IMG/VR virus record: IMGVR_UViG_3300012006_000003 | Coordinates: 96-64,095 of that record | Length of the DNA stretch: 64,000 bases | Source of the DNA: a virus | Taxonomy: Duplodnaviria > Caudoviricetes | Strand: one strand, 5' to 3' | Shown here: positions 1 through 41,114 of the stretch, piece by piece | Numbering within the stretch: position 1 is the stretch's first letter | Layout of the letters: the number at the start of each line of letters is the position of its first letter | The notes under the pieces: model-generated | Seen by the model: only the letters and a program-made list of their open reading frames with translations | What the model was told of the DNA's origin: nothing | Database searches by the model: none | Program-made: the position numbers and the translations under genes

Positions 1-2003
1 TAGTTTTCACCTTGTTTTTTAATATAAGACTTGATACCTAGTTTATTGGCAAACTTATCTACAATAGCATTACCTTTAGAATTTGTTTCAGCTATTTCTC
101 TATCACCAATGATTGTTTTAAAAAGATTAATCTCTGGTTCAATATTGTTTAAAGCTTCATACTTAGTTGTCATTTGACTGAAAAGCATTACAGATCTTAC
201 TAAATCTAAACTAACTTCATCAGCATCCATGTCTTGTGTATAATACACAGGTAAGAATTTTTTATCACCTTCAGTTAAGTCAGCTGTTCCAAATCTGGTA
301 TCATCAGCTCTTATAGAAGTAGCATCTTTCCATTTATCTTTTAATAAACCTTTTATATCATCTGTTCTTTCCTTATCCTGTTTATGAAGTGAAGGTAATA
401 TATAACCTCTTTTCTGAGCATCCGGTAATCTTTCTTGTGCTTCTAAGTAAGTATCTAGTAAAAACTTATGATATTCACCTTTTGGATTCTTAGGTTTTCC
501 ATCTAAATTATATAAGTCTGTCCATTTACTATTGATATAATCATTTGACGGTTCACTGAATTCTTTCATGTAGATTTTAGTACCATCTTTTTTTATGATT
601 AAAACTGATTTGTACCAATCATCATATTCTTGTTCTGTTAATACACCAGCATTTTTAAGCTTTTGCTTTTCAGCAATAATCTTATCAATCTCTTCATCAC
701 TTTTTTTCTGAGCATTTTTACTATACCAGTTACTCATTATGCTTTTTACATTAGCGTCATGATCTGATTTTGCAAGTAACTCATCTCTTGTAGGATTAGC
801 ACTTAATTGTGGACCTTTTCTGGCAGTACGTTCTGCAGCATGATAATCACTCATGCGGTATTTTTGTACAAAAGCCATTCTAGTAGTTACTACAGGTTCA
901 CCTAATTTATTTGTACTATAAAAAGATAATTTCTCATATATACCTTCATTAAATTTTGCAGTATTATTTCTACTAGCGGAATTGACAGCATTATATTTAT
1001 CAAATTCTTTACCAGCAATCTCTAATATTTTATCATCTTTTAAACGGGCACCTTCCAATTCAGTTTTAACTACTCTAGCAAATAATCCAAGTGATGCATC
1101 TTTAGAAGAGATCAATGGGTTAAACCAAAAGTCAAGCATACTTTCATCCTCAGAAGCAAATTTTAATAACTCTTCCATTGATGCTTGATCATAGGAAAAG
1201 CTTCTAAACTTTTGAATTCTTTCAGTAAGCTTTTTTATTTTTTTATCATTGGGTTTGCTAGAGTTTATTTCTTCTGCAAGTCTTTTCTCTAATAATTCTG
1301 CTTCCTGAAGTACTTGTTTATCAATATCTAAAGATTTATAGTTAAGTAAAAATGAAGCCATTAAGGGTATACCTTGTTGAATATATTTTTCTTTAACTGC
1401 TTTTCTAGTTGATATAGCATCAGTAAGCATTTGTTTTATAGTCTTTGTCTCACCTTCAGGTATTTCATCTGATTCTGCAGAGAAATAATTATAGATATCA
1501 TCTTTACTGATCTCATCAAGTATATTATATCCATTTACAAAAGTGTTAATAGCAGTCAACTCCTCAATCATTTTCTTTTTAAACTCAGGAGTACCATCAT
1601 CAGCTTTACTTACTAAAGCTGCCATCCTTTTATAAACAGATTGTGACTTATCATATGTGTCTTTGACAAACATAGTGATAGCCTCAATACCATCCAGAAC
1701 CTCAAAGTTATCAATTAAGTTTTTCTGTTTTTTCTCTTTATATGATTGATTAGGAATCTTTTGTTTTTCAAGTATATTTAATTGCTTTCTAAGATATACT
1801 CTGATTTTATCAACCATTGTTGATATATCATCTTTTCTCTCTTCAACAGGTACATTAACTGACTCATCAATTAATTCATTCAAGCTCTCATTTTGGTCAT
1901 AACCTTTATCAACCCATAACTCAAGTGCTCTTTCTTCATTACCGTTAACACTATCTAGTAAATCAACCCATTCTTTACTAGTCTTAATTGGACAACTTAA
2001 CAT
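1..2003 (-). CDS. Large internal/ejected virion protein, N-terminal part (runs off window start)
   Basis: Not in the ORF track. ATG at 2003 overlaps the end of the upstream gene (ATGTTAA) and translates MLSCPIKTSKEWVDLLDSVNGNEERALELWVDKGY...; the frame was open in the part I translated. Helical, charged composition like the neighbouring cargo proteins. Confidence 0.8.
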   Translation of the reverse strand, partial: MLSCPIKTSKEWVDLLDSVNGNEERALELWVDKGYDQNESLNELIDESVNVPVEERKDDISTMVDKIRVYLRKQLNILEKQKIPNQSYKEKKQKNLIDNFEVLDGIEAITMFVKDTYDKSQSVYKRMAALVSKADDGTPEFKKKMIEELTAINTFVNGYNILDEISKDDIYNYFSAESDEIPEGETKTIKQMLTDAISTRKAVKEKYIQQGIPLMASFLLNYKSLDIDKQVLQEAELLEKRLAEEINSSKPNDKKIKKLTERIQKFRSFSYDQASMEELLKFASEDESMLDFWFNPLISSKDASLGLFARVVKTELEGARLKDDKILEIAGKEFDKYNAVNSASRNNTAKFNEGIYEKLSFYSTNKLGEPVVTTRMAFVQKYRMSDYHAAERTARKGPQLSANPTRDELLAKSDHDANVKSIMSNWYSKNAQKKSDEEIDKIIAEKQKLKNAGVLTEQEYDDWYKSVLIIKKDGTKIYMKEFSEPSNDYINSKWTDLYNLDGKPKNPKGEYHKFLLDTYLEAQERLPDAQKRGYILPSLHKQDKERTDDIKGLLKDKWKDATSIRADDTRFGTADLTEGDKKFLPVYYTQDMDADEVSLDLVRSVMLFSQMTTKYEALNNIEPEINLFKTIIGDREIAETNSKGNAIVDKFANKLGIKSYIKKQGEN

Positions 2004-3964
2004 ATGCTTTTTAATATTTTAGCCATTATTTTATTTAACTCAGATTCTGTTGTTATAGTGTTTAACTCATCAAATACATCAGCAATATCAATTCCTTTAT
2101 TAGCAAGTAATACATCAGTGTATTCATTCATTAATGTACCTCTTACAAAGTTATCAAATATTTTATTATTGTATGGTTTAATTGATATAGGTTCAGCAAC
2201 TATTTGCATAGTATCTAAATCTATATTTTTTTGCATAGTTGAGTTATTACTTCTATCAATTAAATCATATGTACCATTTGGATTTAAAAGAGCTTTAGTA
2301 CCTTGAATTACAATAACTTTTGGCTTTATGCCATACTTTTCTAGTTCTTCTTTATATGCTGTTTCAATAGGAGACTCTTCTTCAACTTCATTTAATTGGT
2401 AATATGTAAATTCTGGTGATGCTTCATTATAATTAGTTGGTTCACTTAAAACATAATCCTGTTGATCTTTTTCTCTTTGAAATAATCTTTCATTATTACC
2501 TGCAGTTGCTAAAGTAAGTTTACCTTTAAATATGTCATTTGTTGTTTTAAATATCCCTGAAGAAGTACTTTTATCTTCTCCTCTTTTATAAACAAAAAAG
2601 TCTACTGCTACATGATTTTTACTGGTTTTTTCAACAATATCACCATTTTCATTTCTAATATTATATTGAGTTACCCAACCATTACCTCTATTAAAATCTC
2701 TTTCTAATACTTCTACAGTATAACCAGCTTTAGGTATTAAAAAAGCATATGTTGTATAATCTTTTTGAGCATTATCCCAACCATAATGATATGGTATACC
2801 ATTTATTGATTCAACTTTTTCAAGCATTGTTTCATATTCTTCAATACTATTTACATTAAAATCAATATCATGTATTGGTTCTTCTGAACTTCTATATATT
2901 GTATCACCTTGACCTGCAACTGCTAATGAACCAGTAAGTTTACCATTTAAATCAGTAAATGTTTTAATTATATCTTGTGCAAACTCATTACCTTTTAATG
3001 CTTTATCATAATCAAGTTTTTCAAAAGATGTATTAAGTTTAGCAATGTAATCTTTATCACCCATTAATATATTTATAGCAATATGATCAGCAAGATTTTC
3101 AGAGTACTCCATCTGAGCTAATAGATTATTTCTAAATTTTCCAAATAATCTTTCTATAAATTCTTCTATAGCTGCTAATGCTTTTGCAAGTAATGTTTTA
3201 TCAGTACCGCTTGCTTTGTAGTTTTTAACAAGAGATTTAGCAATTATTTTACCAATTGCTTCAATTTTAACTTGTTTTACATTGTTATATATAGGCATAT
3301 ATTGCTCATATATTTTATCATATTCAGACCAGCTAGTAATATTTTCTAAAAGATCTTTTATAATAGGATTAGCCTCACCCATTAACATAGTTACCATGTG
3401 TCCTACTTCTTCTGGTACTGTTTCAGCATTTCTATTTTTAGCATACCAGATAAGCTTATTTAATACATCAGTTGCACCTAATGCATCTACACCAAGTTTA
3501 GACTTTATATCTTCAAACTCTTTAGATTTAACACCAAAAGGTTTTAGAAAATCTAATAAGTACTTATCAAGTTCTTTTAGTGCAGGTTCAAGTACTTCTT
3601 TAGTATCTAATTGATAGTATGTATCATCATCTTCTGTATTTTCTTGATCATACAAAGCTTGATCACCATTGTAGAATGATAAATCTTGTTTAGTACTAAT
3701 ACCCATTTCAGCAAGTTCATCCTCAAGTTCATTTTGTGCGTCAAAGGCTTCATTAGCTATTTTTTCAAATACGGTATCAGATATATCAACTTTAGCTTTA
3801 TCATTTCCAAATCTATCTACTCTAGATAAATTAGCCCAGCGGTCATTGATTTCTCTTGACCGCTTTTGTGCTTCAATATATGAATGAGAGGTGTCTCTAT
3901 AGCCACCAAGTATCTCATCAATTTTATTATTTATATCTTCCTTTATTACATCTATACAAGCCAT
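1997..3964 (-). CDS. Polyvalent-type virion protein with degenerate zincin-like (EEVGH) domain and Pol-beta-family nucleotidyltransferase-like domain
   Basis: 655-aa ORF; PEEVGH...EAIGK zincin-like motif; LTGSLA..G...IHDIDF...VDFF matches the GS/DxD/D nucleotidyltransferase signature. Confidence 0.6.
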   Translation of the reverse strand: MACIDVIKEDINNKIDEILGGYRDTSHSYIEAQKRSREINDRWANLSRVDRFGNDKAKVDISDTVFEKIANEAFDAQNELEDELAEMGISTKQDLSFYNGDQALYDQENTEDDDTYYQLDTKEVLEPALKELDKYLLDFLKPFGVKSKEFEDIKSKLGVDALGATDVLNKLIWYAKNRNAETVPEEVGHMVTMLMGEANPIIKDLLENITSWSEYDKIYEQYMPIYNNVKQVKIEAIGKIIAKSLVKNYKASGTDKTLLAKALAAIEEFIERLFGKFRNNLLAQMEYSENLADHIAINILMGDKDYIAKLNTSFEKLDYDKALKGNEFAQDIIKTFTDLNGKLTGSLAVAGQGDTIYRSSEEPIHDIDFNVNSIEEYETMLEKVESINGIPYHYGWDNAQKDYTTYAFLIPKAGYTVEVLERDFNRGNGWVTQYNIRNENGDIVEKTSKNHVAVDFFVYKRGEDKSTSSGIFKTTNDIFKGKLTLATAGNNERLFQREKDQQDYVLSEPTNYNEASPEFTYYQLNEVEEESPIETAYKEELEKYGIKPKVIVIQGTKALLNPNGTYDLIDRSNNSTMQKNIDLDTMQIVAEPISIKPYNNKIFDNFVRGTLMNEYTDVLLANKGIDIADVFDELNTITTESELNKIMAKILKSIC

Positions 3965-3974
3965 AATATTAATT

Positions 3975-6900
3975 TTATATGTTACAGTTAGGTTTATAAG
4001 TTGTAGCTTTATCTAGTATTATCTTTTTAGTTTCAGCATCAAGTGTTGATTCTTGACCTCCCGTTTCTCCAGAATCAGCTATTGTGTTATCTGAAAGTAT
4101 ATAATACTTTTTGTTGTTAAAGTTAGACATTCTTAGTGTACCATCTTCTAATTCTTTTTTAATATTTATAATATTAATAGATGTTTTATCAGTCAACTCA
4201 GTACCATTTGCATTAAATATTCTTCCATCAGGTTTAATAACAAAACTAGCTTTTTTAGTGCTTATTAGTCTATCCTCTATTTTTTCAACTACTTGTTCAC
4301 CTGATTGACCATCTGGTTCTTCATTAGTTTCACCTACTGGAGCTTGTTGTTGAGTAGATTGAGTACCTCTAAGTTCTTCTCTTACTTCCATAAGTAGTTT
4401 AGGAAACTCTGTACCCCACTTACCTTTATCTTGTGTATGTGTAAGAGTAGCATTACCAGTAGCAAGAAGTTTAGCTAGAGCATCTGGGTTTTGTTCAAAA
4501 GATAATTTAAGTATATTTTTCATTACTCCTGATGAATCTCTATCCCAGGTACCATCTGATAGATCCGTTATTTCTCTACCTAATGCTTTTGCTTGTTTAC
4601 CTGAAGCAGTTTTTAATTTTTCAAGTATTTCTAAATTTTCTTTACTTGTAGGTGTACCTAATAAAACAGCATTAGTAAACCAAATTTTCATAGCTTGATA
4701 AGCACCTTCAGGAGTTCTAAAAGTTTCATTACCAAGTTTAACAGGTCTTTCAGCAAAGTTACTTAACTCAGCATTTTCTCCTGTACCTGCATAAATGTTA
4801 ATTTTAGTATCACTACCTTGTTGTTGAGTATTAAATCTAGCTTTAAAAGCTTGTTCATTTTTAACATTACCTTCATTAGTTCTAAACTCCCAATCTTTTG
4901 GTGCTAATACTATAGTAGGGATACCTAATTTCATACCCGCTTTTGCACCTGCTTCATCAAATCCTGTTTGACCACCACTTCTTATTAATGTGATTTTGTT
5001 TTTAAGGTTTGGTGAATTAACTATACCACTTAATAAAATATACATAAATTCATCAACTTCTTCTTGAGTGCGGCCTTTCATATCATATATACCGTTCCCT
5101 GCAATATTTAAAGTTTTTGCATTGAATTTGTTCAATATATCTACAGCACTGTTAATTGATGCGGACATCTTTTCTTTATTAAATTTACTCAGGTTTTGAT
5201 TAGTTGTTGCTAGCTTAATATAAATCTTATCTTGTTCTTGAACAGATTTTTTAGTAAGTATTTCACCAGGAGTTTCAAAGTTATCTGCTAAATGTATTGT
5301 TGCATCAGCAGAAGCATTAATTCTAGTTCTAGCTGGATAACCACCAGTTTGATTTTCTTCAAAATTAATTTTACCCGTAACATTTTCTTGTTGTTGTTGA
5401 GTAGATATTTTAGTTGGTTGTGTTGGCATACCAGGTTCTAAATCAGCTGCTCTTCTAAATGTAAATGTTACAGTATAGTTACTAGTAACTGTACCATCAG
5501 GCAATGTAATTGGAGGAAAACTTGAATCAGTTTTTGGTGCTTCAATAACATCATGTACAGCTTCAAATCTACCTTTACCATCCATACCAAAGGTATAGAT
5601 ATCACCATTATGTAATGTAAGTGTTTTAGGATTTACCATTTGACCAGCACCTCTTACTGCTTTACCACCATTATCATCTACTCTTACTTTATGTTCATTA
5701 CCTAATACATATACTACAACTGGATAACCTTTTGCAGTATTAGATTCATCAATATCAGTATGTCTGAATAATTTTGTACCCTTAGTATATATATTATTTA
5801 AAGCAATGTCATAGTTAGACATATCCTTACCTAATGTTTTTTCAATATGTTTTTTTAAGAAGTCAAGTTCTTTAATATTTGGTACTGGTGTGCCATCATT
5901 ATATTTAGAGTCATAAAAATAATAAGGTTTAATTGGTTGTAATTTACCAGTAGCATTAAAGTCAACTTGAGCTGGTTGAACTTTTAATTTTTCTCCTGTA
6001 ACCTTTTTAGTATTATTACCTTTCCACTGCCATCCATAACTAAACATTAAATTAGCCGTGCTACTACCGTTTTCAACATAAGCATTTTTCTTAATGTTGT
6101 CTGATATTGCATTTACTAATTTATTATCAAATTCTTTAGTAGGATTTGTTGAAGCTTGTATTACACCATATTGAGGTATAACTTCTTTAACTCCAATAGG
6201 TTGTACTGTAGCTTGAGCAGATGGTTGAGTTGAAGGTGTCCCCCAATCATATTTATTAATTAAATAATCTAAAGCTATAGCATGAGACGGTTCTCCAAGT
6301 TCTGCATAATATTGCAGTTGTCTTCCTTTTAATTTACCTGATTTTAAAACATCTAGAATAAATGCTTTTCTTTTTGGTTTAACATCTTTAAATTTATCAG
6401 TAGTTAACCAATCAATATAATTTATAACTGCTTCTTTAATAGTATTAGTTTTTATAGTACCTGTTCTAATAAAATGAGCCCAAGGATTACTAAAACTATT
6501 TATATCACTAACCATTTCCATAGTATAAACTCTATTATTAGCTTTTGCTTCTTTTATATTAGCATCCCTATCATATTTACCATCTTTAGTTTTAATGTTA
6601 GAAATAACTACATTTTTATTTTCTAATTGAGAATATATATCATTACTATTAACACTAGTAGATGGTTGAGTAGATCTTGTTGCAACTTTACCTACAATAT
6701 AATTATTTACATTAGGATCATTAGCAATCATCATCTCTGTAATCTTATTAAAAGTAACATTGTTCATGTTGTTTTCAATAAATGCTCTTGATGCTGGCTC
6801 AACTATTTCAAAATATGTAGTATCTGGAAGCACATAACTTAATCCGTATTTAGTACTACCTACTCCATTTTGTAAAATAGATATAAGAGGTAATGCTTTA

Positions 6901-9900
6901 AACATATCAGATATCTCTTTATTTTTAACCGGGTCATTTACTTTGATAACTGTATCATCAGCTAAGTCAATTAAGTTTTGGTGATAAGCTGAAGCTAATT
7001 CACCTTTTACTACAGCTTTGTTATTTAAAGTTAAAACTGATATTTGATCTTTTATTTTTTTAGTTTTAGCATCAAATATATTAACAGGAACATCTGTAAT
7101 TTGCTCTAATACAGAGTATAATTCTTTTAAGTGAGTATTCTCACTCAACATACTCATGAATTTAGTAACAAATTCTTGGTGATCCAATGATGTAAGTGAT
7201 TGAGGAATACCTGGAAAAGACTCACCAGTAGATATAATCTCATTTAATCTGTTCTGATAAATGTAATTTACCATTGCATTCTTAAATGATGTAATGAAAT
7301 TTGTTACACCGTCTGCACCATCACCGTATTTAGCAGGGACTGTTTTATTTTTAAGATAGTCAAGTAAGTACTCAGATACTTTTCTATCATCAGTCAATGG
7401 AAATATTGGCTCTACTAAATCTGGAGTAAGCGTGTTATCAAAGAAAGATCCAAGAATAGATTGATTTCTTAATTTACTTATTAAAGCAGGTTCTAACATA
7501 GATGACTCAGTCAACATATCTAAACCAAGACGTTTTTGTAGTATCTCCTGTATAGTTTTAGATGTTGTTGTATCTGGATTAGACTGTCTTTTGAGATCAC
7601 TCATTGCTTTTATTTGTTTCTCATACTCTAGATAGTGCATGAATGCGGCAACAGCTCTTCTACTTGTTGTATCTTTAGTTTCAATGATCTCTTCTAAATC
7701 TGATAAACTAAACTTGTCAATACCTTTAGTAGCTGCTAAAGCAACATCTTTATAGTTTGCCCAAGATAATGGGTGGTAAAACTCATCATTTGGGTTAGCA
7801 ATTATATATTTAAATAGTGGAGCTTCTTTAGTGTTTATACTTTCAATATCATAAAGATTTATTTTATCTTTTTTGATATCACTTTTTAATTTTTTAATAG
7901 TAGTTTTAAAAACTTTACCTTTCTCACTAATACCACTTAGTCTTACAACCACTGCTGTATCAGGTTCAGCATTAGCCAATGCTTTAGTTAATCTTGTTTC
8001 ATTTGCATCATATATTGCATTACTGATATCAGTTTGTCTTAAAGTAGCTTGTAGAGCATTATATTTAGCACTCTCATCTTGTTTAGTTGGTTTACCTGTA
8101 AGATTAGCATATGTACTACCATATAATCTTTGTTGATTAGCATACTCTATTACCAATGGTTGAGATATAAACAGGATTGCTTCTTCTTTTGGAACACCCG
8201 CTTTAAGTAAACCAAGCATCATTGGGATAAGTTCCTTATTAGCTTGGATAAAGAATATCCATGCATCTTTCTCAACATCCACAGATCCATTCATCAAGTG
8301 AGATATTAAATCGGCTATCTTATCTTTGTTATCTTGACTGTTGATTCCAGATAAAGATATTCTACCATCTTTTGTTTTAGTATGATTAAGTAATAATCTC
8401 ATATCATAATCTATTGATGGGTCTTCTTCATACTTTTTAGTTACTTTATTTTTAACTAAACCTTTATATGTTTTTGGAAGAGCAGCACCTAATGATGTAT
8501 ATAATGGATTCAATGCATTCTCAAGAGCAATGATACCTAATACATCTTTACCAATCATGTTAGCCTCATGCTTATGTAAGTTATAACCTACCTCTAATGT
8601 ATTTGTTGGACTAATGGTTTTATATCTGCTGTATTCTGGTAACTGATCTACTAATTTATCAGCAATATCTTTCATCAAGTAAGTGTCATTAGGTCTGATC
8701 AATGTAGCATATGTTTCAGGTAATTCTAAAAGCCCTCTAATTGAGTCAATTAATCTATTTTCTAAAGCAGCTTTATGTAACTTGATTAATCTTGTCATTT
8801 CAGCTTTATCACCTTTCTTTTTAGAAGCAGCAATAAGTCTATCTAAAGTTTCTTCATCCATACCTGACTCAACATATTGACCATTTGCATCTATGTTAGG
8901 CATGAATGTAGTAAGCTTATCAACGTCAAAATCGGCACCTGACTTAGCAACAATCTCTGATGGAGGTATAATAATGTTACCTGCAGCTGGATCCAAGAAC
9001 TCATATACTTCCATAAACTCCATAGAGTTTAATCCTTGTACTGGAATCCTTACAGCAGTCATAGTAACAGCCTTACGGTTATTACCTTTATTTAACCACT
9101 CATCATTCTTGATCATCTCATTTAATCTTTCTCTTGTACCAATAACTTTTCCGTCATTGTCTTTAAGATTTAAAAGATTATTAAAGTCACCTTGTAATGC
9201 AATAGCAACTTTCATTGCAGTTGTTTTACCATCCTCACCTGGATAATAGAATGGTAAATTATTACTACCTAAGTATTTCTCTATATCTTTAGTTTGTGCT
9301 TTATCAAATTTTAAACCTGAATCCCATAAACCATTTGACATAGCACTAGATACTTGTACTAAAGGTTCACCTTTTACTTTTTGTTTTACAATTCTTTTTT
9401 CAATAATTGATGTAATCATTTTTTCAATGTCTCCTGAGAGCATATGTAATGATAAATCTTTTGTAATCTTGTTATCTGAACCAACTTGGATATAGTCAAT
9501 TAAATGCTCAGGTATCTCTTTTCTTTCTAACTCTCTTTGAATTACATCCATGAATTTAGAAAGATCACCACTTACATATTTACCATCTACTTTTTCATAT
9601 CCAATTTCCTCAAGTAATTCTTTTTTAAGAATACTAGTATAGTTGTCAACAGCATTCTCATATGCTCTAATTTGTGACGTATATTGTTTATAGTTTTCAA
9701 CTATTTCACCATTTTCATATAATCCTTCAAGAATAAGTTTTCTTAACTGAGTTGCAAATACAGTTTTACCTTTATATTTATCAGGTACTGCTGTAACATT
9801 TTTAACATACTCTAAGTATACTGTATTAGGAGTAAACTGTATATCAGATCTTAGTGTCTTTTCAACACCGCCATCATTATATATTTTATCAGCTTTACCA

Positions 9901-12900: not shown

Positions 12901-15900
12901 GAGTCAAGCTGATTAGATACTTTAAGACTATCTTGATAGTTTAAAGCTAATTCTTTTGTTTCTGCATTGACAATACCACGTGCTCTATTAAGAGTGTTGA
13001 ACATATGGTTATCAACAAGTGGAGTATATTTGTTTAAAAGTTTAGGATTTTTACCAGCAAAATATAATCTTTCAAATAAATCATCTTGCATAGATCTTTT
13101 ACCAAGTAATGCTTTAATAAAATTCCAGATTTGTCTGAATATAGTATTTCTTATAGGAGCATCACTTTTAGGTGACGGATCTTTAGCATAATCTCTATAC
13201 TCTTCAGCAAGTATTTCTTCTACCTCTTCTGGAGAAAGATCATAATTATTTAATCTTTTTCTAGTTTCAGCATATAACTTAGTTTTTTGGGCTTTAGTTA
13301 AATATAACTGAGTAAATGCATGCCAAGCTTCATGGTATAAATCTACAGCAGAACTACCAGTAGCAGTATCTAATTGTATTTTAACATCCTCTAATCTTTT
13401 ACCAGCTATAACAAATCTTGCATAAACATCAGAGTTAACAATGTTAGCCATGTGTTCAAGCTTAATAAACTTAGACAATGGAGAATTAGCCCACCACTCT
13501 TTAGCAGCAACTATCTGTTCTTTAGTAACACCATTAGGTAGTTTACTTGATCTATTTAAAGTTATGTCCCCTGAATCTAGCAAATCCATTATATCAGACA
13601 TGTCATCTGAAGCATTAATATCAGATGGTGCAAAATACTCAGCATCAATTTTTGGTGCCTCTTCTTTTTTAGCTTCAGGTGTCTTAGGTGTTTTAGGTAA
13701 TAAAGTATAATCAGTTTCACTAACTTGACCTATTTTTTTATTATTTGAGTCATATATTGAAATTACACCTGTTTTTGGCACACCTTTGCTTGTAACAATA
13801 TCATTAACAATAAATGTTACAGGATCACCAGATTTAATACCAGCAATTGGTTTACCACCCTCATATCTACCTTCTACAAGTACACCATCTACAGTTAATG
13901 TAAATGTAGCATCTGTAAGAGATTTAAGAGCTGTTATAGTACCAGATAATTTATCATTTTTCTTAAGTTTGCCTATAAGTTCATCTTTTCTTATTTTTAT
14001 TCTAGACTCTCTATTATTGTTTACCTCTTCTTCAGCAATACTTATTTCATCATTAAAATCAGTATTTATATTAAATTGAAAGTATGGGTTGTTATTACTA
14101 GTTGCAACATCTTTTTTCTTTTGTCCAGCTACACCTACAATTTTTAAATTTTGAGCTAATAAAAAATCAATATATTGAGTTGGTCTTTTAAAAAATTCTT
14201 TGTTTGCAATATCATATAAATTAAATGTTGCAGAACCATTAAGTAAATTTTCATTAATGGTCATGTTTGTAGGATAGTATATTACTTCACTATCACTTTT
14301 TATATATGGACTTTCATATAGTAAAGAGTCAATAATTAATTGTTCCGCTTTAGGTTCTGAAAGAGTTATTTCTTTAGCACTTGTAGATGCATTTGCTTTA
14401 ATCTTAACAGTTAACTCATTAGTAGTTGAATTATAATTTACCCATAATTTTCTTGTAGTTTGAGCATTAATTGCATTATTTGTAAACTGCATATAGAAAT
14501 CATTTTTTACATTGTTTTCTATATTTGGATTCATTAATACAGCAGCAATTTGCTTAATATACTCTTCACCTAAATTAGGTCTATCAATTGTATACTCTAC
14601 ATCATCAACACGGACATAAGCTTCACTTGTTGTAGTATTAATTTGAATATTAGGTTTTTTTATGTTATACTCTTGTAATAACATATCTAATGTTACTGTA
14701 TTACCATGTGAGAATATATCTGATATACCAGCACTTACACCTTTGATACTTAATAATGGTACCTTTTTTGGATCACCTGTTCTTACTTTATTAGTTAAAG
14801 CTTTTAAGTCTTGAAACTGCTCTTGTTGTTTTTTATCTACTATTTCAAGTTGAGCTTCATATGTAGTATTTTGATTCAGTAACCATTTCTTATAGGTATC
14901 AATTCCCATACCCATTTTATAAGCTACTTTCTCAAGGATGTCTTCAGGAGAAAGTATTCTATCTTCAATACCATAGATATCAGTAACTCTTAATCTATCT
15001 GAGTCTTTTTCATTTCTTACATCTCTTAAGAACTGATATACAATTTGACCACCTTCATTCTTTGTAGATATTTTACCAAACTCATCAAAGTATATTGGGT
15101 TACCACCTGCATCAGATACTACTAAAGCAACTATATCTTTTATAGGAGTAATTCCTTTCTTACGTGTAACATCTTCTGAAATAGAATTACCTTTTTTTAA
15201 TAGATTTACAGTTGTTGTATCTAATAAACCTTTTGCATTAAGAGATCCTAATAATTCAGGTTTAAGTTTAATTACTCTACCTTCATATAATAATTCACCT
15301 AATGCAGAATCTCTTTTACTATTGTTTCTTATGCTTCTTATAGTTCTATAGATTCTTGCCTTATTAAGATCTTTTCTTTCTCTACCTAGAGTATCTTTTT
15401 CATCAGGGTTTCTTGGTTCAAGTTCTTGCATAGTGGATGTGAAAGCACTTGATGCTTGCCATCTAAACGGGTCATTTAATATCTCATCTAACTCATCATT
15501 GTTAGTAGATAAAGGATCATTTAAAATATTATTCTGGATTTGAATATCTATTTCTAAATCCTTTGCTGTAGCTTTTGGTCTAAAATATTTTAGTGTTTCA
15601 AGTAAACCCTTATCAACATTTTTAAATTTTGCTATAAGCTCTCTAATAAAGTTTGCATCAAAGTCTAATGTTTCTAACTCAGCTTGATTACTTGCTTTGT
15701 TTATTAAAGTTGGTACAATCTGTAAAAAAGATGATGCTACATTAATATCTTTTCTTGACTCTATTTGTTCAAATAGATTCTTCATAAAAGTGTCAACTTC
15801 AGCCTTAGTAAAAGGTTTTCCTCCTTCTAAAGCTGTCAACATTTCTTTATATACTAACTTGTATAAGTTCTCAACTTGTGCTTCTGATAATGAACAGTGT

Positions 15901-15908: not shown

Positions 15909-15912
15909 AATA

Positions 15913-18900
15913 TTAACAGTCTAAATCATTTAATAAATCTTCATAAATAGTGTCTAGTGATTTCTCACTAGCCTCAGTCTCAGCTTTCCCAAGGGCACCT
16001 TTTTTATCAATAAAATCTTGCGCCTTCTTAATTGATTCAGCTATTACTTCTTTATCCATTTCATCAATTTTTTGCTCACCTAATTGAGCATCTTTTGCTT
16101 GTTGAATTGAAAGGGTTGTAACATGTTTATCCAACTTAGACAAAGGTAATGTTTTTTTATCTTTTCCATATTGAAATTCTACACCAGTTTCTGTTGATTT
16201 AATAACTGTAATTTTAGAACCTTTATCAGCAAAAAGTTTATCTTTTTCTCCTGGTATAGGTTCTTTAACTATTACAGTATCTCCTTTATGCAAGATTGTT
16301 TTAGATAGCTTTGTATTTGCTAATTTAAACTCTTCTTTTTTAGCATTGACTAAATCAACAATAGCCGGTCTATCTTCAATTGTGATTTGATTGTTTACAA
16401 GACCCTCTCTTAAATTTACTAAATATTCTTCTAATACTGGTCCTTCATTGATAGATTCTAGTTTATTTTTAACCTCTTCAATAGTAATTCTAGGCCCTAC
16501 TTGTTTTTCAACAACATTCTTTTTATTAACAGTTGTGCTTGTAGGTTGTACAGCACCATTCTTTATGTTTTTATTAATTAAATCTAACCATTCATCAAAT
16601 TCTTTATCTGTACCTGAACTATCTAATTCTGTTGTATTTAAACTTGTAATAAGAGCCATTAGTCCTGATTCAGTCCTTGTGTTTTCTTTTAAACCTTTAA
16701 TTTTATAATCTAATTTTGTACCTGTCTGAGATTGAAATTCTTTTTTCCAAAGCCTATTTATTTTAAAATGGTTGTTAAAATCGTATACAACTTTACCAGA
16801 CTGGTCTTTAATTAGATTAGTTGCTCTATTAATATACATATCAGGAAATACAAAGTTTTTGTTTAATAACTCTGCAACCTTATCAATTTCAGGAGAATAA
16901 GGCATTTTACCTGTTGCTTTGTCAACATTGCCTTTAACTAACCATGCTCCTGTATAACCAAAGAATGGATACCAATCACCTTGAATTTTATCAGATGTTC
17001 CAGCTGATGATTTATAGAAAGGTACAAGTTGTCCATTGATTTTTGCTACAACAAATAATCTACCTTGCATTGCTTCAAACACAACTGCACCTTCAGGATT
17101 AAGTTGAGTGTTAACTATTTCTTTATTTGTTTTTTTATCTATTACTGTTAATGTATTATCCGGTACAACAAGTATATCCTTTAAAGGAGCCATGTTGATA
17201 TAAATTCTACCTACTGGATCTTTATCTGCTGTAATGAAAAATTCTTTTGCATCTTTAATTTGATTTGTAACAGGTTTAGTTTTTACCGTGTCAATGATAT
17301 TGTCACCGTTAGATATACTGTTTACAGTAGGAGATTTTTTACTTAAAGCATCATTTTTAGTATAAAGCTTACCATTGCTAAAGTATCCATAATTGAACTT
17401 AGTAGGTATTTTACCTACGGTCATTTCTGGATATGTTTCAAGCATTTGATCTTCTATAGTATCCAGGCTTACCTTTTTTTCAAGAGTAGATTCACCAAAT
17501 TCAGATTTAGGAAAAGCAAGTATAAACATACCAAGCTGACCTCTATGTGGAGACTCACCTTTCTGTAATTTTAATAACGCATTATATAAAGATTCTTTAC
17601 TACCTACACCTACTGTACCTTGAAGTGCAGTACCTAAATTATATTTAAATTGTGTATCATATATATTTTTAGCAACATCGTCACCAGTTACATGTAAACC
17701 ATAAATCATATCATCAGGTAAAGCTCTTACTTGATCTCTCAAGGCTTCTTTATCTGCTAGTGATACTTCTTTTACTTTCTTTACTTGTTTACCTTTAGCT
17801 TCAGCTATTTCATCAGCAAAAGCTAATGCGTTTAAATCATTATCTAATTGTTCTTGGTATTTAATATATGGAATATCATCAGTGATTATATTCTTCTGGT
17901 CTTCTTTGCTTAGTGTCTTGATAACATCTTCTGGGTAACCCAATCTTTCAAACTCAGTTATAAGTTTTGGATTCATTGCTGTTGCAACTTTAATACCTAG
18001 CGTATCACTGATTTTAATTACAGCATCAATCTTAGACTTAGCATCTCTAAACTCTGGATTCAATGGGAAATACCACTTATCAAGTCCAAGTAATTTTTGA
18101 TTACTAGGTTGCTTAACTGAAGCAATCTTATACTCTTTTTGATTAATTGTAATCTCAAGAGGCATGATGTTTATTTCAGCATCAAGACCTGTCATCTTTT
18201 TCAATAATCTTGCATAAGTATATTGTTGAAGTGTATAATCTTCAATTTTATTTAAGCCAGACTCTGTTCTTGTATCTTTTTGAAAACCGTTCCATTTCTT
18301 TTGCTCACCTGTTTTAAAGTCAACAATCTGTAACTTACCTGTTTGATCTATTAATAGTAAATCAATTTCACCAGCAACACCTGACTCTTCATCAAATACT
18401 TTAATATTATCTGCTAATACAAATAACTCACCTGAATCAATCTTTGCCTTAAGAGGTTTAATAAAACTATCTGGTCCAAATAATTCATCATAAGCTTCTC
18501 TAGATATTCTTGCCTCATCAAACTTAGGTGTTTGACCTGGTGTAAAAAAGCTTCTTAACTGTTTATCTAAGTACGTACCTGCAGTTCTTGTATACTCATA
18601 AGCATTTTCTGATATAAAACTTTGAATATCAACAAGTAAATCTTTTTTAGATTTAATAGGAGTTGTTGCTTCTTCTTTTAATAAATCTTTTAAATACTTT
18701 TTAACTAAAGTAGATGTAGATTTAATCCCGTCTATTGTATCTTTAGTATAACCGGAATTACTTAAAGCAGGTAAAGTTGTATCAATTTCTGCCATGAATT
18801 TATTTATACTGTTGGTTGTAAGACCCTCTGTATCAATAGTTTTAGCAAAAGCTTCTGCAATTAATTTATTCCCTTTATATGTATACTTGTCTTCTTTAAA

Positions 18901-21900
18901 CTTTTGTATAAAGTGTGTAACTCTTTCTAATGTTTTACCATTAGTAATATAATTGTCTTCCTTATTTTTTGCAATATTTTTTTGCTGTGCAATAAGTTTT
19001 TCTTTTAATACTTTAATTGTCTCCTGGATGTCTGGTGCAAAGCTTTTTCTTTTACGTGATGTAATAAGTTTTTCAAACTTGCTAATCATTGTAGAGTATT
19101 TCTCCTTAGTTACAGGATCTGTTTCTACATTTTTTAATTGTTTTAATTGATCTGACATTGCAATAAGCTCATCTGTTTTATACTTTGTAGTACTAACATC
19201 TTCACCTTTACGTTTAAAGTTAAATTCATCACCTTCATCAGCTTTTTGTTTTTCAATTGCTTCTTCAGCTTTTGTATTATAAGCATCAATAATTTTTTTA
19301 GCTGCAGGGTTTCTTAAAATATAAGTTGCAAACATGTCGTTGATAATCTCATCATCAAACTCATCTGTTTCTACTGCTTGTGCTTCTTCTGAATTATTAA
19401 AAGCATTTTGTAATTCTTTATATAAGTCTTTAGGTAACTGATCTACTGGAGTATTTACTGAGTATAATTCTGCTTTTCCTGTTTCTTTTTTAGCGTTGAA
19501 AGCATTGATGTTTTCCTCTTTAAGCTTGTTATATTTTTCTTCAATAATTTTAACTTGCTCAGAATCAGCTTTTTGTTCAAGTTTATATATTGTATACTCA
19601 GAGAATTTAGATGTAATATCCTTGATAGAGATTAACTCACCATCTGCATTATCACTTCTTAATCCATCTTCAGAACTGTATAGAGTAAATACATTACCTG
19701 TTTTAGCATCTGTGATATCTACATACTCTTTCATGTTAATCACAACTGCAATGTCTTTAATTGTTAAGCCATCTTTTTTTACAGTTTTAATAACAGTCTT
19801 TACTTCAGTTTTTTCTAACGCATCAAGTTCTTTTTTCTCACTGTTTTCTAAACCTTCAATAGTATCTTGTAGTTTTTCATCAAGTGTCTCTGTACTTACA
19901 TTTTCTCCTTTTAAAGCTTTTGCTTGAGATAACATGAAAAACAATTGCTTGTATTTTTTACTTCCAATTGGAATTACTTGTTTATTTGTCTCATCTAGAA
20001 ATTCTTTTGGTGGTATACCATTTTCCATAAACTCTTGAAATTGATCAAGATCTATGAATATATTCATGTCAGCAAGCTTATTCAATAACTCATTGCTTTC
20101 TAGTGCAGCCATTTGCTTATTAACCATATCTACAAAATAGTCTTTTCTATTATTGTACATATTAGTCATCCAAGCTTGTGTCTTACTTACATGATTCATG
20201 AAAGATTGTGGATCATGTAATAAGTTAATTGATTCTACTAATCTTTTAGATTCAGCAAATAACTTGTAATAATCTTTTACTTTTACAAAGCTCTCATCAA
20301 TATCAGTATCAAATACATAAGACGGATCAATACCATTAGTATTCTTTAAATAGTTTTTATAAGCTATTTCAAATTTTGAATTTAATTGTTGCTCACCTCT
20401 ACTTGAATCAATGATATGTGATATTTCTTCATCACTTAACTCAACACCATATGTCTCTTTAAACATATCTTGAGTTTGATTAAGTATTTCTATTTTTTCT
20501 TCATCAGTTAACTCCTCAAGGTTTTGTTCTTTTTTAACAGCTTCAAATATAGCTTCAGCTGTTTTAACTTTTACAGGTCTTGTTTGAAACTGTTCATGTG
20601 CATCAGCAAACTCTGATAAAGCTTTTAACTTATTTTCTTTTTTAACTAAGTCTGATTTACTTGCTGGATCTGTAGATTGTTTTAAGGTATCTATCTCAGA
20701 CTTAAGTAAATTTAATTCAACATCAATAGTTGATGGGTTCAATATAAAGTTCATGTCTTGTTGAGACATGTTTTTCATTGTAGGATTATTTAATACGCTA
20801 CCAGAGATTTTTAACATTCTCTCTGAAGTATTCCTAAATGCATGATTAGCATAAACATAATCTCTTATACCTACTTTCCAGGCTTTATTCAAAAGAGCTG
20901 CACTTTCAAATTCAGGAGTATTTTCATCATACTTACTTAAGTCAACAGGATTAGGGAATCTTTCTTTAGCATAGTTATAAGATTTTTCTACTGAATCTAT
21001 GTTACCTAAAATAGTATCAATTTTTTGTTGTTCTTTAGCACCAGTACCTTTTTCAAATCCAAGGGCTTCTTCAAACTCTTCTGGAGATAATTCTTTGAAA
21101 GAAGTAATATGTTCTTTAAAATAGTTTAAAGTATTTGTATCTAAAGCTGTATGTATCTGTGATGCAAATGCTTCACTCAACTCATCTTTAGCTTCTTTAG
21201 TATCTGCATTATCAATGTTACTAATTATATTATTCTGTACACCATAGTTAAATATACGGGAGTTGAAGAACTCTTCAGGATTTTTATATAAAGCTGTTAA
21301 CTGATCAGAAACATCTTTACCATGTTTAGCTCTCAAGTCTTTATACTCTTGATACTTTTCTTTATTAAATGTATTATTGTATCCGTAATCAAGACCACCT
21401 TTAACTAAGTTTAATCCACCAGAAAATAATCCCATCAATGCACCAGAAGCAAATGTCTCCAATCCTTGTGAAGAAAACTGATCTTTTAATCCTTCATACC
21501 TTAATGAGCTTAAACTTTTATTGTATAAATGAGCTCCTAACTCTTTATTCATGTAAGCAGTCTCATAATATTTCTCATTAGCAATAGAGATTACATCTTG
21601 TAAGTTTTCTTGTACACCCTCCATTAAGTTAGCTTTCAAATATCTACCGGCTACTTTAGCAGTTACACTTACTGGTGCTTTTTTAAAACCTTTTAATGAA
21701 TTTTTAAATGAGTCTTCAACAAATTTGAATTCCCCTTTAGCAAGTTTTTTACCTACCTCAGCTGTCTTTTCAAGTACAATTTTACCACCTTTAAATGAAT
21801 ATACATCATCTATTCTAGACTGCATTGCTTTTTTAGATACACCTGATTTTAATAAATTTGGTATAACAATTTTATTTGTTAGAAGAATTAAACCTGTATT

Positions 21901-23136
21901 CCACTTTAAAGTGTTCATACCTGCATCCTTTGCTGTTTTAGTTAAAGTATATTGTTCATCATTATTTGGAGCTCTACCATTCTTTTTATAGAACTCATTA
22001 TATAAATCATCATATACTTTATTATCATTCATACCACCTTCAAGTCTAGCTTCAGAAAGGGCCATGTTGATATTCTTTATATCTCTAAATAATCCACCGG
22101 CAGTTTTATTAGTACCTTGAGCTAATCTTGCTAATCCTGTTAAGTTATCAGAGTTTTTTCCAATACCAATTATAGCATCATATGTATTTTCAAGTGGGTT
22201 TAAAAATTTACCTACTTTACTTTTACCAATGTTTTCAGCTGCATTCCACATCTTTCTAGCTCCACCAATTGAATTAGCTTCTTTAAGTGTAGTATTAATA
22301 GCTTTGTAACCATCTGTGGCTAAACCAATTGCATCTCCAATTTTACCAATTTTTCTAGCATTGTTTGCAGTAGCTGCAAAGAAAGATCCACCACCAGTTA
22401 CTGGAGCAAGTAAAGCACCAGCTGCTTCTTCTAGAATAGCTTCACTTATAATACCTGCAGTATAAGCAAAACTCATTGCTGTATTATTAAAGAATGCACC
22501 CATTCCTTTTTTAGATGATTGACCAATAGCTGCTGCATTTTCATATGCTCTTGCATCTTCAAGATCTGCACTGAAATCACCTTGCATCATTTTAATTAAA
22601 CTCTTTGGACCTGCAACAAAACCTCTACCAAGTAATGGCATGAATGAATTCTTCATCATTCTTGTAAAGTCATCACCCATAGTAGTATTAGCATTGAACA
22701 TAGCTTCATTATCTCTTATTGGAGAAAAACCTATAGCATCAAACTTTTCTTGACCATATGCTGCATATCTTTTATAAAATGAATTACCTGAAGGTCCTGC
22801 ATTATAGGCATTTACTTGAGCATATTGATTCTTATCATGATTTGTTGCAATACGCATTTGAAAACTTTTACCAATTGCTTCTTTCAAATCAGTTGGTGAA
22901 ATCTTTTTGTTTGGATTCTGAGAAGCCGGTCTTCCAGGTGCATGTCCTGTGATACCATCCTGTATAACATAGTTAGGATTTGTGCTATTTAATGGAGGTG
23001 TGACTGGAAAATAATCAATTTTATTATCTTTTAAATCATCACCTTCAAAAGCAGACATGCTTTTACTATTAATTGCAGGACCACTTACTTTACCAAATTC
23101 TATTCCTAATGGGTTTAATGAGCTGTTGTTTTCCAT
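15913..23136 (-). CDS. Large ejected/cargo protein with Gly/Ala-rich N-terminal region, PD-(D/E)XK nuclease domain and further C-terminal domains
   Basis: 2407 aa; AGEIDLLLID...IVDFKTG...YTLQQYTY PD-(D/E)XK motif (~18200-18390); N-terminal hydrophobic Gly/Ala segments; lies directly upstream of the vRNAP. Confidence 0.7.
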   Translation of the reverse strand: MENNSSLNPLGIEFGKVSGPAINSKSMSAFEGDDLKDNKIDYFPVTPPLNSTNPNYVIQDGITGHAPGRPASQNPNKKISPTDLKEAIGKSFQMRIATNHDKNQYAQVNAYNAGPSGNSFYKRYAAYGQEKFDAIGFSPIRDNEAMFNANTTMGDDFTRMMKNSFMPLLGRGFVAGPKSLIKMMQGDFSADLEDARAYENAAAIGQSSKKGMGAFFNNTAMSFAYTAGIISEAILEEAAGALLAPVTGGGSFFAATANNARKIGKIGDAIGLATDGYKAINTTLKEANSIGGARKMWNAAENIGKSKVGKFLNPLENTYDAIIGIGKNSDNLTGLARLAQGTNKTAGGLFRDIKNINMALSEARLEGGMNDNKVYDDLYNEFYKKNGRAPNNDEQYTLTKTAKDAGMNTLKWNTGLILLTNKIVIPNLLKSGVSKKAMQSRIDDVYSFKGGKIVLEKTAEVGKKLAKGEFKFVEDSFKNSLKGFKKAPVSVTAKVAGRYLKANLMEGVQENLQDVISIANEKYYETAYMNKELGAHLYNKSLSSLRYEGLKDQFSSQGLETFASGALMGLFSGGLNLVKGGLDYGYNNTFNKEKYQEYKDLRAKHGKDVSDQLTALYKNPEEFFNSRIFNYGVQNNIISNIDNADTKEAKDELSEAFASQIHTALDTNTLNYFKEHITSFKELSPEEFEEALGFEKGTGAKEQQKIDTILGNIDSVEKSYNYAKERFPNPVDLSKYDENTPEFESAALLNKAWKVGIRDYVYANHAFRNTSERMLKISGSVLNNPTMKNMSQQDMNFILNPSTIDVELNLLKSEIDTLKQSTDPASKSDLVKKENKLKALSEFADAHEQFQTRPVKVKTAEAIFEAVKKEQNLEELTDEEKIEILNQTQDMFKETYGVELSDEEISHIIDSSRGEQQLNSKFEIAYKNYLKNTNGIDPSYVFDTDIDESFVKVKDYYKLFAESKRLVESINLLHDPQSFMNHVSKTQAWMTNMYNNRKDYFVDMVNKQMAALESNELLNKLADMNIFIDLDQFQEFMENGIPPKEFLDETNKQVIPIGSKKYKQLFFMLSQAKALKGENVSTETLDEKLQDTIEGLENSEKKELDALEKTEVKTVIKTVKKDGLTIKDIAVVINMKEYVDITDAKTGNVFTLYSSEDGLRSDNADGELISIKDITSKFSEYTIYKLEQKADSEQVKIIEEKYNKLKEENINAFNAKKETGKAELYSVNTPVDQLPKDLYKELQNAFNNSEEAQAVETDEFDDEIINDMFATYILRNPAAKKIIDAYNTKAEEAIEKQKADEGDEFNFKRKGEDVSTTKYKTDELIAMSDQLKQLKNVETDPVTKEKYSTMISKFEKLITSRKRKSFAPDIQETIKVLKEKLIAQQKNIAKNKEDNYITNGKTLERVTHFIQKFKEDKYTYKGNKLIAEAFAKTIDTEGLTTNSINKFMAEIDTTLPALSNSGYTKDTIDGIKSTSTLVKKYLKDLLKEEATTPIKSKKDLLVDIQSFISENAYEYTRTAGTYLDKQLRSFFTPGQTPKFDEARISREAYDELFGPDSFIKPLKAKIDSGELFVLADNIKVFDEESGVAGEIDLLLIDQTGKLQIVDFKTGEQKKWNGFQKDTRTESGLNKIEDYTLQQYTYARLLKKMTGLDAEINIMPLEITINQKEYKIASVKQPSNQKLLGLDKWYFPLNPEFRDAKSKIDAVIKISDTLGIKVATAMNPKLITEFERLGYPEDVIKTLSKEDQKNIITDDIPYIKYQEQLDNDLNALAFADEIAEAKGKQVKKVKEVSLADKEALRDQVRALPDDMIYGLHVTGDDVAKNIYDTQFKYNLGTALQGTVGVGSKESLYNALLKLQKGESPHRGQLGMFILAFPKSEFGESTLEKKVSLDTIEDQMLETYPEMTVGKIPTKFNYGYFSNGKLYTKNDALSKKSPTVNSISNGDNIIDTVKTKPVTNQIKDAKEFFITADKDPVGRIYINMAPLKDILVVPDNTLTVIDKKTNKEIVNTQLNPEGAVVFEAMQGRLFVVAKINGQLVPFYKSSAGTSDKIQGDWYPFFGYTGAWLVKGNVDKATGKMPYSPEIDKVAELLNKNFVFPDMYINRATNLIKDQSGKVVYDFNNHFKINRLWKKEFQSQTGTKLDYKIKGLKENTRTESGLMALITSLNTTELDSSGTDKEFDEWLDLINKNIKNGAVQPTSTTVNKKNVVEKQVGPRITIEEVKNKLESINEGPVLEEYLVNLREGLVNNQITIEDRPAIVDLVNAKKEEFKLANTKLSKTILHKGDTVIVKEPIPGEKDKLFADKGSKITVIKSTETGVEFQYGKDKKTLPLSKLDKHVTTLSIQQAKDAQLGEQKIDEMDKEVIAESIKKAQDFIDKKGALGKAETEASEKSLDTIYEDLLNDLDC

Positions 23137-26084: not shown

Positions 26085-26107
26085 AATATTAATGTTTGTC
26101 TATACTG

Positions 26108-26115
26108 TAAATATA
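26108..26115 (-). promoter_or_regulatory. Candidate promoter motif (TATATTTA)
   Basis: In the 65-nt gap upstream of the cargo/vRNAP block. Confidence 0.4.
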
Positions 26116-26149
26116 TTAAAATTTTATAAGTTTACTAAACCTGGAAAGT

Positions 26150-28741: not shown

Positions 28742-28750
28742 AATACAAAA

Positions 28751-31258: not shown

Positions 31259-31276
31259 ATAATGTGTAATATATAT

Positions 31277-31284
31277 TAAATATA
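31277..31284 (-). promoter_or_regulatory. Candidate promoter motif (TATATTTA)
   Basis: In the 60-nt gap upstream of the 31258 gene. Confidence 0.35.
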
Positions 31285-31318
31285 ATAAATTTTGGTTTAC
31301 TCAATAAACATTAAAAGT

Positions 31319-40443: not shown

Positions 40444-41114
40444 TATCTTAATGAGTTTTGACTATCATCTGAACCATTAGTAGGTATACTGATAGACATA
40501 GTTAATTCTTTTAATACATATTGTTCAATCTCACCAAATAGATAATCTGGAAAAGGTAATTGATCATCATTTCTAAACTTGCATTCCTCTGAAGTATCAC
40601 AGGTAAAACCTGATATATTACCTTCAAATACACCTTCAACTTTAATTGCTTCCCACTGTACATTTGGCATATATAAGTAACCATTCAAATACCAGAAATA
40701 TTTTCTAGTATTATATTTAAAACTTGTAACTTTAGTCATTGATGAATATGTACCTGGATCAGTTCTGAATAATTCTACTGATGTATCTAATGAAGATACA
40801 GTACGTATAAGTGGACCATTAAGTCCATCAAAAAACTTAGGTAGCTTTTCTTTAGTTCTTTTTATATAGCATCCAGATGTAATTCCTACACATCCAGCTT
40901 CAACTTTATCTATGTCAATTAACTCAACATAAGTCAATGTAGAAAATATTGAACTAATCTTCATTAACCTATTCTGATTGTCTTCTCTTTTTAATAGAGA
41001 CTTGCCATATTTAGATATAGCAAAGTATATAGTTCTATCAGTTAAGAATGGATCTTCCTTAACTGCTTTAAGAGCATTTCTTACTCTTGATATTGCTTCT
41101 CCTATAGTTGTCAT
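40443..41114 (-). CDS. Tail ring/adaptor protein
   Basis: 223 aa; KYFWYLNGYLY motif; sits between the IHF-like and tubular protein genes as in crAss-like phages. Confidence 0.6.
   Translation of the reverse strand: MTTIGEAISRVRNALKAVKEDPFLTDRTIYFAISKYGKSLLKREDNQNRLMKISSIFSTLTYVELIDIDKVEAGCVGITSGCYIKRTKEKLPKFFDGLNGPLIRTVSSLDTSVELFRTDPGTYSSMTKVTSFKYNTRKYFWYLNGYLYMPNVQWEAIKVEGVFEGNISGFTCDTSEECKFRNDDQLPFPDYLFGEIEQYVLKELTMSISIPTNGSDDSQNSLR

Follow-up and report, generated by a model that had tools for sequence, protein, structure and literature searches.

Why would four consecutive giant proteins of a phage keep their interiors free of cysteine (Cys) and carry the few that they have at their very ends? 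The question is raised by the IMG/VR virus record IMGVR_UViG_3300012006_000003 (Duplodnaviria; Caudoviricetes), a 64-kb fragment rated 53% complete, of which we analyzed positions 96 to 64,095 (64,000 nucleotides (nt), hereafter the window). The four proteins, i.e., those of 2407, 3977, 655, and at least 667 amino acids (aa), are encoded by consecutive genes on the minus strand and are probably packed in the phage for injection. By analogy with a solved case in a cyanophage (see below), we think there is a fair case that they are joined head to tail by disulfides, i.e., that each facing pair of terminal Cys forms a candidate end-to-end link.

Minus-strand open reading frames (ORFs) of the window were translated with genetic code 11 from the first ATG, and Cys were counted per protein. 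The four proteins contain six Cys over 7,706 residues (0.078% vs. 0.78% across the window's 33 ORFs), and all six lie within five residues of a terminus (Table 1). Translation and counting reproduced every Cys position that an earlier, sequence-only reading of this DNA had given for the four proteins, and no internal Cys had been missed. The fourth protein has no further Cys either in its 667 residues within the window or in the 699 aa that are open to the end of the contig. The probability that six uniformly placed Cys would all fall within the 35 positions lying no more than five residues from the seven visible termini is 8.8e-15, and that of finding at least six Cys in those positions at the window's own Cys frequency is 3e-7. 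The absence of an N-terminal Cys, which the same reading had taken as the mark of a chain start, is true of the 2407-aa protein, and the last protein lacks a C-terminal Cys in close relatives.

Table 1. Coordinates of the chain members and of other features in the window
Feature	Position	Strand	Cysteines or evidence
First chain member, 2407 aa, gp47/g067-like	15913..23136	-	Sole Cys is the last residue (TGT 15916-15918); no N-terminal Cys
Second chain member, virion RNA polymerase, 3977 aa	3975..15908	-	Only C5 (15894-15896) and C3975 (3984-3986, ...KPNCNI*)
Third chain member, connector, 655 aa	1997..3964	-	Only C3 (3956-3958) and C655 (2000-2002, last residue)
Fourth chain member, gp49/g065-like	3..2003	-	Starts MLSC; sole Cys is C4 (1992-1994)
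DFDVD, polymerase residues 2326-2330	8919-8933		DFDxD motif of two-barrel virion RNA polymerase
HEAWH (HExxH), polymerase residues 859-863, N-terminal extension	13320..13334	-	Motif search
AlkB-like 2OG-Fe(II) oxygenase (3312-3459), cpYpsA SLOG (3514-3605), NADAR (3712-3836), polymerase C-terminal extension	4401..5975	-	Pfam
Four proteins between muzzle gene and chain (982, 863, 835, 940 aa)	23136..34141	-	2 Cys in all, none terminal
863-aa protein	26150-28741	-	C114/C124
Crassvirus muzzle protein, 1757 aa	34141..39414	-	16 Cys; Pfam PF25731 crAss_MUZ, E 2.6e-28
Eight consecutive proteins, likely tail-fibre genes	39427-47976	-	1.8-8.1% Cys
90-aa basic DUF6321 protein	50485-50757	-	Ends ...RKWNC*, plus C61
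64-aa basic protein	52313-52507	-	Ends ...KGKKC*
P22-like portal, weak match	56656-59409		23.5 bits (below cut-off 26.1)

The window derives from a crAss-like phage, since the 1757-aa protein encoded upstream of the chain matches the crassvirus muzzle family, and the cargo block sits on the same strand in the crassvirus structural module, with the muzzle gene upstream. Judged by their sequences, the four chain members together form the RNA-polymerase cargo block of such a phage, i.e., a gp47-like protein, the virion RNA polymerase (vRNAP), a 655-aa connector, and a gp49-like protein. The first of them gives short local BLAST matches to crAss001 gp47 (E 7e-10) and phi14:2 g067 (E 1e-9), with which tblastn agrees, and no match when searched in record G001, a relative at ~53% identity. 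The vRNAP label attached to the 3977-aa protein in the sequence-only reading holds, given the DFDVD at residue 2326 and the BLAST match to phi14:2 g066 (its residues 513-1666, E 2.6e-24), to which a match to crAss001 gp50 (E 1.3e-16) is added. The fourth protein has short local matches to phi14:2 g065 (E 5.8e-7) and crAss001 gp49 (E 2e-4); its homologues in close relatives are ~1100 aa long (1104 aa in L021, 1099 aa in L024), begin with MYCPIKTS and MLTCPIKTS, respectively, and have an N-terminal Cys only. A tblastn search of the 655-aa protein against phages gave just a weak partial match, megablast of window positions 1-20000 against the phage collection gave none, and a PHROG search with seven window proteins matched a single family of unknown function.

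Homologous proteins in the same order and with the same end-Cys pattern are found in two cultured crassviruses. In phi14:2, the sole Cys of g067 (1,797 aa) is its last residue, g066 (2,180 aa) has C3 and C2179, and g065 (1,421 aa) only C3, while in crAss001 the sole Cys of gp47 (2,341 aa) lies at -3, gp50 (2,412 aa) has C5, C1334, and C2404, and gp49 only C5. Both blocks (g067-g066-g065 and gp47-gp50-gp49) were reported in virions by their papers, and by homology the cargo proteins of the window would be present in its virion as well. The window differs from both phages in having an extra fourth member, the 655-aa connector, and in a polymerase that is nearly twice as long as g066 or gp50 and has added HExxH, AlkB-like, cpYpsA, and NADAR modules.

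In crAss001, gp47 is encoded on the plus strand and gp50 and gp49 on the minus strand, and the matching of Cys between partners on opposite strands is therefore a feature of the proteins. This bears on the simplest alternative, namely that terminal Cys arise by chance, persist as a neutral relic, or result incidentally from signals in the junction DNA, such as overlapping stop and start codons. Such an overlap does exist at one window junction, where the TGT that encodes the final Cys of the 655-aa protein shares nucleotides with the start codon of the fourth gene (ATGTTAA). However, partner genes in relatives are spaced from -11 to +580 nt apart, so the stop/start overlap is not the general cause of terminal Cys, and this variable spacing together with the opposite strands of crAss001 led us to reject junction DNA motifs. 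Given also the two probabilities above and the fact that the Cys are kept at 23-30% identity, we consider that chance, relic, or DNA by-product has virtually no prospect of accounting for the pattern.

Conservation was followed in larger sets of relatives, with fragments included. Polymerase homologues were found with residues 3300-3977 (best 120 of 1,352 matches, 2,247-6,047 aa), and for the 655-aa protein the best 150 of 388 matches were taken. A Cys is present in the last 10 residues of 115/120 polymerase homologues and in the first 10 of 73/120, and 95/120 have no more than two Cys in total; C3975 is present in every row, and C5 in at least 90% of the rows, of an 18-row polymerase alignment (A3) that reaches down to 23% identity. 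Among the 655-aa homologues, 119/150 have an N-terminal Cys (at position 3 in 72 of them) and 61/150 a C-terminal one, C655 being invariant in the alignment of this family (A1).

The polymerase core was also used to find 79 IMG/VR loci (74, 68, and 51 clusters at 90, 70, and 50% identity), in which junctions were scored between adjacent plus-strand ORFs of at least 200 aa (first ATG) spaced -120 to +700 nt apart. Both facing ends carry a Cys at 122 of the 169 junctions, neither end does at 39, and only one end does at eight, i.e., 161/169 junctions are concordant (Fisher p 1.9e-29 for the 79 loci and 8.6e-19 with one locus per 50% cluster, values that overstate independence because the sequences counted are related). 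Of the discordant junctions, five are due to small genes inserted between mutually matching partners (L063, L071) and two involve Cys-rich proteins that follow the chain (L093, L099); the remaining one has a Cys at -19 (L084). The 192 ORFs of at least 1,000 aa in these loci (476,046 residues) contain 260 Cys, 236 of them within 10 residues of an end. Wherever chain ends are visible, in every locus, the first member has a C-terminal Cys only, middle members have both, and the last has an N-terminal Cys only; L063 and L093 each have one extra ORF with an N-terminal Cys that is not a chain member. The terminal Cys, for which the sequence-only reading had named non-conservation in homologues as the refuting outcome, are thus conserved as facing C-/N-terminal pairs, and these comparisons, at the level of sequence, show that the terminal ends are under selection as such pairs.

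A further 12 loci were found through the 655-aa family and mostly display the same pattern, two of them (L014 and L019) departing from it. The upstream ORF in L014 (1-9393; at least 857 aa) terminates in ...TKKK, with no Cys, although the next protein starts MAKSC; as with crAss001 gp47, the gene of the missing partner may lie elsewhere. The protein of L019 at 9593-12244 (the homologue P0209), and also P0205 and P0250, have their second Cys ~65 residues before the C-terminus, with a conserved tail ...GLVIPK. Small Cys-rich genes or ~550-nt gaps separate the partners in L013, L019, L063, L071, and L066-L073, and small Cys-containing genes (205-382 aa) sit exactly between matching partners in L013 (11956-12741), L019 (12249-14062), L063 (11711-13050), and L071 (10024-10641). 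These Cys-containing genes may be mobile insertions at the junctions.

Whether gene splits and fusions gain or lose the junction Cys, a check suggested by the sequence-only reading, could be answered directly: fused forms are without the pair and split forms carry it. Fusions of the gp47-like protein with the polymerase (4,100-4,900 aa) have one to three Cys (one in most), none of them N-terminal, and those of L059, L080, L086, L088, L090-L092, L094, and L095 have a single C-terminal Cys and are followed by a protein with an N-terminal Cys. The 4,998-aa polymerase of G001 likewise has one Cys, at -3, and the next protein (~2,252 aa) has one at position 3. Fusion on the other side is seen in P0003, which is the polymerase of a complete relative, G003, and shares 58% identity with the window polymerase over 3,342 residues. 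Its C-end aligns to residues 536-655 of the 655-aa protein, and its Cys are found only at 5 and 4116. In P0126 (2,097 aa), a 655-type domain is combined with a region like the window's fourth protein, and there is a single Cys, C4. Across the 655-aa family, members with Cys at both ends have a median length of 948 aa (n=42), and those with an N-terminal Cys only a median of 1,706 aa (n=77).

The pairing and its loss in fusions also bear on the possibility that each terminal Cys acts on its own, e.g., by anchoring its protein to the capsid, the portal, or DNA, or by serving as a signal for packaging or processing. The 90-aa and 64-aa proteins of the window end in Cys too, and the phage may therefore employ a Cys at this end for other purposes as well. 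On the other side, C- and N-terminal Cys balance across junctions (161/169), chain starts lack the N-terminal and chain ends the C-terminal Cys, both Cys vanish together in fusions, and many proteins of the capsid module in the window lack a Cys with which pairing could occur, all of which makes single action an improbable explanation. To our knowledge, a lipoprotein- or prenyl-type signal is also unlikely for Cys that in the homologues lie at positions 3-7, without a signal peptide, and at -1 to -10. Pairing of the N- with the C-terminus within one protein was rejected, since many members have a single Cys (the 2407-aa protein, gp47, gp49, g067, g065, and the G001 proteins).

What kind of bond could such pairs form? 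A solved example comes from cyanopodophage A4 (Anabaena phage A-4L, Saffermanviridae), for which the excerpted text of the report describes a disulfide between gp27 Cys1715 and gp26 Cys5 in the pre-ejectosome, seen by cryo-electron microscopy, that stabilizes the gp27 C-terminal helix inserted in a cleft of gp26 within a pentameric ring (PMC12002296; PDB 9k3a). In the A4 genome, Cys1715 is the sole Cys of the 1,717-aa gp27 and Cys5 the sole Cys of the 1,114-aa gp26, and the pair is kept in Pf-WMP3, Pf-WMP4, CHP58, and TR020 (4/4 sampled, 23-27% identity). As in the window, these are internal virion proteins encoded by adjacent co-directional genes, with a C-end Cys followed by an N-end Cys and otherwise Cys-free. 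No sequence relation could be detected between the A4 pair and the window proteins, which makes the pair a precedent by analogy, not by homology: the window pairs may work like the A4 pair, and we claim no membership in the A4 protein family. The same end-Cys pattern is thus present in two phage groups whose proteins of this kind show no detectable sequence relation, and in one of the groups (A4) the bond has been seen.

Based on this analogy, we postulate that, in the finished particle, each C-terminal Cys would bond to the N-terminal Cys of the next protein, most likely as a disulfide, the interiors being kept free of Cys and each end that faces the next protein carrying one. Through these bonds, the four proteins would form a single linear, covalently linked assembly exceeding 7,700 residues. 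Such a bond, lying close to the chain ends, would keep the joined proteins thread-like, so that they could leave through the narrow portal and tail while still joined, and the reducing cytoplasm of the host would then separate them. We infer when the bond forms, that the chain threads through the tail, and that reduction releases it, as well as any effect on stoichiometry or ejection order. As the particle contains no known reductant, a bonded pair would have to cross the portal and tail joined. If only a bond near the ends keeps the shape of a thread, this would account both for Cys lying so strictly at the ends and for the loss of internal ones. The persistence of ~250-aa connectors that consist of little beyond two Cys-tipped ends fits a role as links. 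A complex of polymerase residues 3700-3977 with the whole 655-aa protein, predicted with alignments, scored 0.03 (mark 0.32), which counts neither for nor against binding.

Disulfides could also act as static staples that lock an ordered internal body in the capsid, like the ring of A4, with no part in threading or ejection order. This is how the A4 bond is described in the available part of its report, namely as holding the gp27 helix in the gp26 cleft of a pentameric ring. A staple, however, could sit anywhere in an interface, whereas 236 of the 260 Cys in long ORFs lie no more than 10 residues from an end across 51 clusters (50% identity), and, with no known reductant in the particle, a bonded pair would still have to pass the channel joined. 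We consider a purely static role unlikely. Facing thiols might instead be bridged by a metal ion or another covalent cross-link. The pairing statistics are silent on bond type, and the rule holds in phages of anaerobic gut hosts, both of which leave room for such a bridge. The sole solved case, that of A4, is a disulfide, though, and one thiol per end supplies two ligands only, with no conserved His/Cys partner in the end motifs. A bridge other than a disulfide is accordingly still less probable than the staple.

Several observations weigh against an end-to-end disulfide chain, in addition to the relatedness of the sequences counted above. The bond has been seen in no crassvirus, only in A4, and BLAST of A4 gp26 and gp27 against the window proteins detected no similarity (best E 0.052). 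crAss001 gp50 has the extra internal C1334, and in the long ORFs 24 of the 260 Cys lie away from the ends. Four of the 120 polymerase homologues are without Cys in their last 20 residues; one of the four, P0101, has the look of a fusion between a polymerase and the last protein. Two gp47-polymerase fusions without a C-terminal Cys, P0042 and P0043, may be truncated predictions. Gut crassviruses live without oxygen, and the Cys rule nevertheless holds in crAss001; with anaerobic hosts, spontaneous oxidation after lysis is not assured there. Finally, the authors of the phi14:2 work have proposed cleavage of the fused forms; if continuity can be given up in such forms, a continuous thread would not be obligatory. 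Even so, we hold the disulfide-joined chain to be the most plausible of the readings considered.

The disulfide link of the sequence-only reading is therefore supported by analogy, through the solved A4 Cys1715-Cys5 bond. Its remark that nothing of the kind had been described has to be withdrawn in part, as a bond of this kind has been published for A4 (PMC12002296); it stands for Crassvirales and for the pattern as a rule. A literature search on end Cys in crassvirus cargo found no paper, the word "cysteine" is absent from the crAss001 paper, the phi14:2 preprint, and the 2026 N4 paper, and "disulfide" is absent from the phi14:2 preprint and refers to tail proteins in the excerpted text of the crAss001 paper.

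The polymerase and the connector, between which one of the links would lie, both have composite architectures. With its long N- and C-terminal extensions, the polymerase is far longer than phi14:2 g066 or crAss001 gp50. Its N-terminal extension contains the HEAWH motif, which we take to be that of a putative zincin-like peptidase and of which Y858, H859, E860, and H863 are nearly invariant in the 18-row alignment. Its C-terminal modules, likely used in counter-defense, comprise a NADAR domain (Pfam 42.9 bits, cut-off 35.1; E 1.7e-7 against YbiA, PDB 2b3w), a cpYpsA domain (29.2 bits, cut-off 26.2), and an AlkB-like segment (2OG-FeII_Oxy_2, 29.8 bits, below its cut-off of 31.2). In P0003, the cpYpsA and AlkB-like segments occur in reverse order relative to the window polymerase.

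The 655-aa member looks, from its sequence, like a 250-aa connector with a domain inserted at ~110-530. Its end segments (1-84 and 524-655) are also found alone, as mini-proteins of 245-256 aa with both Cys (P0155, P0164), and L021 has such a connector, 252 aa long, as a member of its chain. The central domain (~110-530) is optional and at the same time widespread, with 388 matches in the representative library. G345, S346, D366, and D368 (G-S...D-x-D) are invariant in alignment A1 and may correspond to the motif of pol-beta-type nucleotidyltransferases. The structure model of the protein has a mean predicted local distance difference test (pLDDT) of 60 with a confident core at ~310-470; a Foldseek search of this model against PDB returned no match at E 0.001 or better, the best weak matches being DNA polymerase lambda (E 0.007) and MenT1 (E 0.015, TM 0.49 on target). 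On the basis of the motif and model, we tentatively regard the central domain as a nucleotidyltransferase.

Cys are distributed quite differently elsewhere in the window. The almost Cys-free genes from 3 to 34141 are in sharp contrast to the Cys-rich region of likely tail-fibre genes at 39427-47976, in which a 506-aa protein has 41 Cys and ends CGCGCNS. The four proteins between the muzzle gene and the chain have no Pfam and no PHROG match, and the close pair C114/C124 of the 863-aa protein provides the only internal Cys upstream of the chain. Similar close pairs occur in crAss001 gp45 (C390/C398) and phi14:2 g069 (C369/C378), and BLAST found no similarity among these three proteins. Five of the 32 complete window ORFs end in Cys. 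The 90-aa and 64-aa proteins flank a Cys-free 513-aa gene, and their C-terminal Cys is kept in 3/3 relatives with the 90-aa protein and in 1/1 relative with the 64-aa protein.

If true, a coupling rule of this kind would be a concrete mechanism by which podophages could store several giant proteins in fixed amounts and pass them through a narrow tail in order. It would also explain the absence of internal Cys in cargo proteins, the free splitting and fusing of cargo genes, and the persistence of tiny connectors conserved only at their two ends. Given that Crassvirales are reported, in the part of the source available, as the most abundant human-gut viruses (PMC10172136), the rule would then be relevant to how a very common infection proceeds. 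One may go further and imagine a general "cysteine-coupler grammar" for injected cargo, in which an end disulfide replaces a lost peptide bond so that splits are tolerated, the cargo travels as a single-file, redox-labile polymer in fixed order, and reduction by the host both uncouples it and signals arrival, perhaps activating the polymerase. Such a grammar, which would have arisen independently in Crassvirales and Saffermanviridae, is a conjecture that we find rather doubtful.

Comparison with other ejected proteins helps to separate the two halves of the pattern. The large internal proteins of N4 (gp50, i.e., the vRNAP, gp51, and gp52) and of T7 (gp15 and gp16) leave via the tail and have, as in the window, Cys-free interiors, with 0 Cys in the 4,294 aa of the three N4 proteins and 0 in the two T7 proteins. 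Unlike the window proteins, they have no terminal Cys (except the single C2 of T7 gp14), and thus no chain is possible. An interior without Cys appears to be a general property of proteins that are ejected, to which the end pairs come as an addition.

The window polymerase may also be compared with the polyvalent proteins that Iyer et al. are said to have described in 2017 as giant injected multi-domain proteins of phages and conjugative elements, and which PMC9503650 also mentions. Like them, it combines several unrelated enzyme modules (NADAR and cpYpsA above their cut-offs, AlkB-like below, and HExxH), i.e., NADAR, AlkB-like, SLOG, and peptidase modules whose order is shuffled between relatives; in the window, by contrast, the modules ride on a virion RNA polymerase. 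A literature search found no paper tying polyvalent proteins to end Cys. A4, with which the end Cys are shared, has one link, between two proteins neither of which is an RNA polymerase, and the excerpted text of PMC12002296 treats its bond as a local stabilizer, without generalizing, whereas the window would have three links among four proteins. What is specific to the window is this four-member chain with three candidate links, its connector-plus-domain member of 655 aa, and its module-loaded polymerase.

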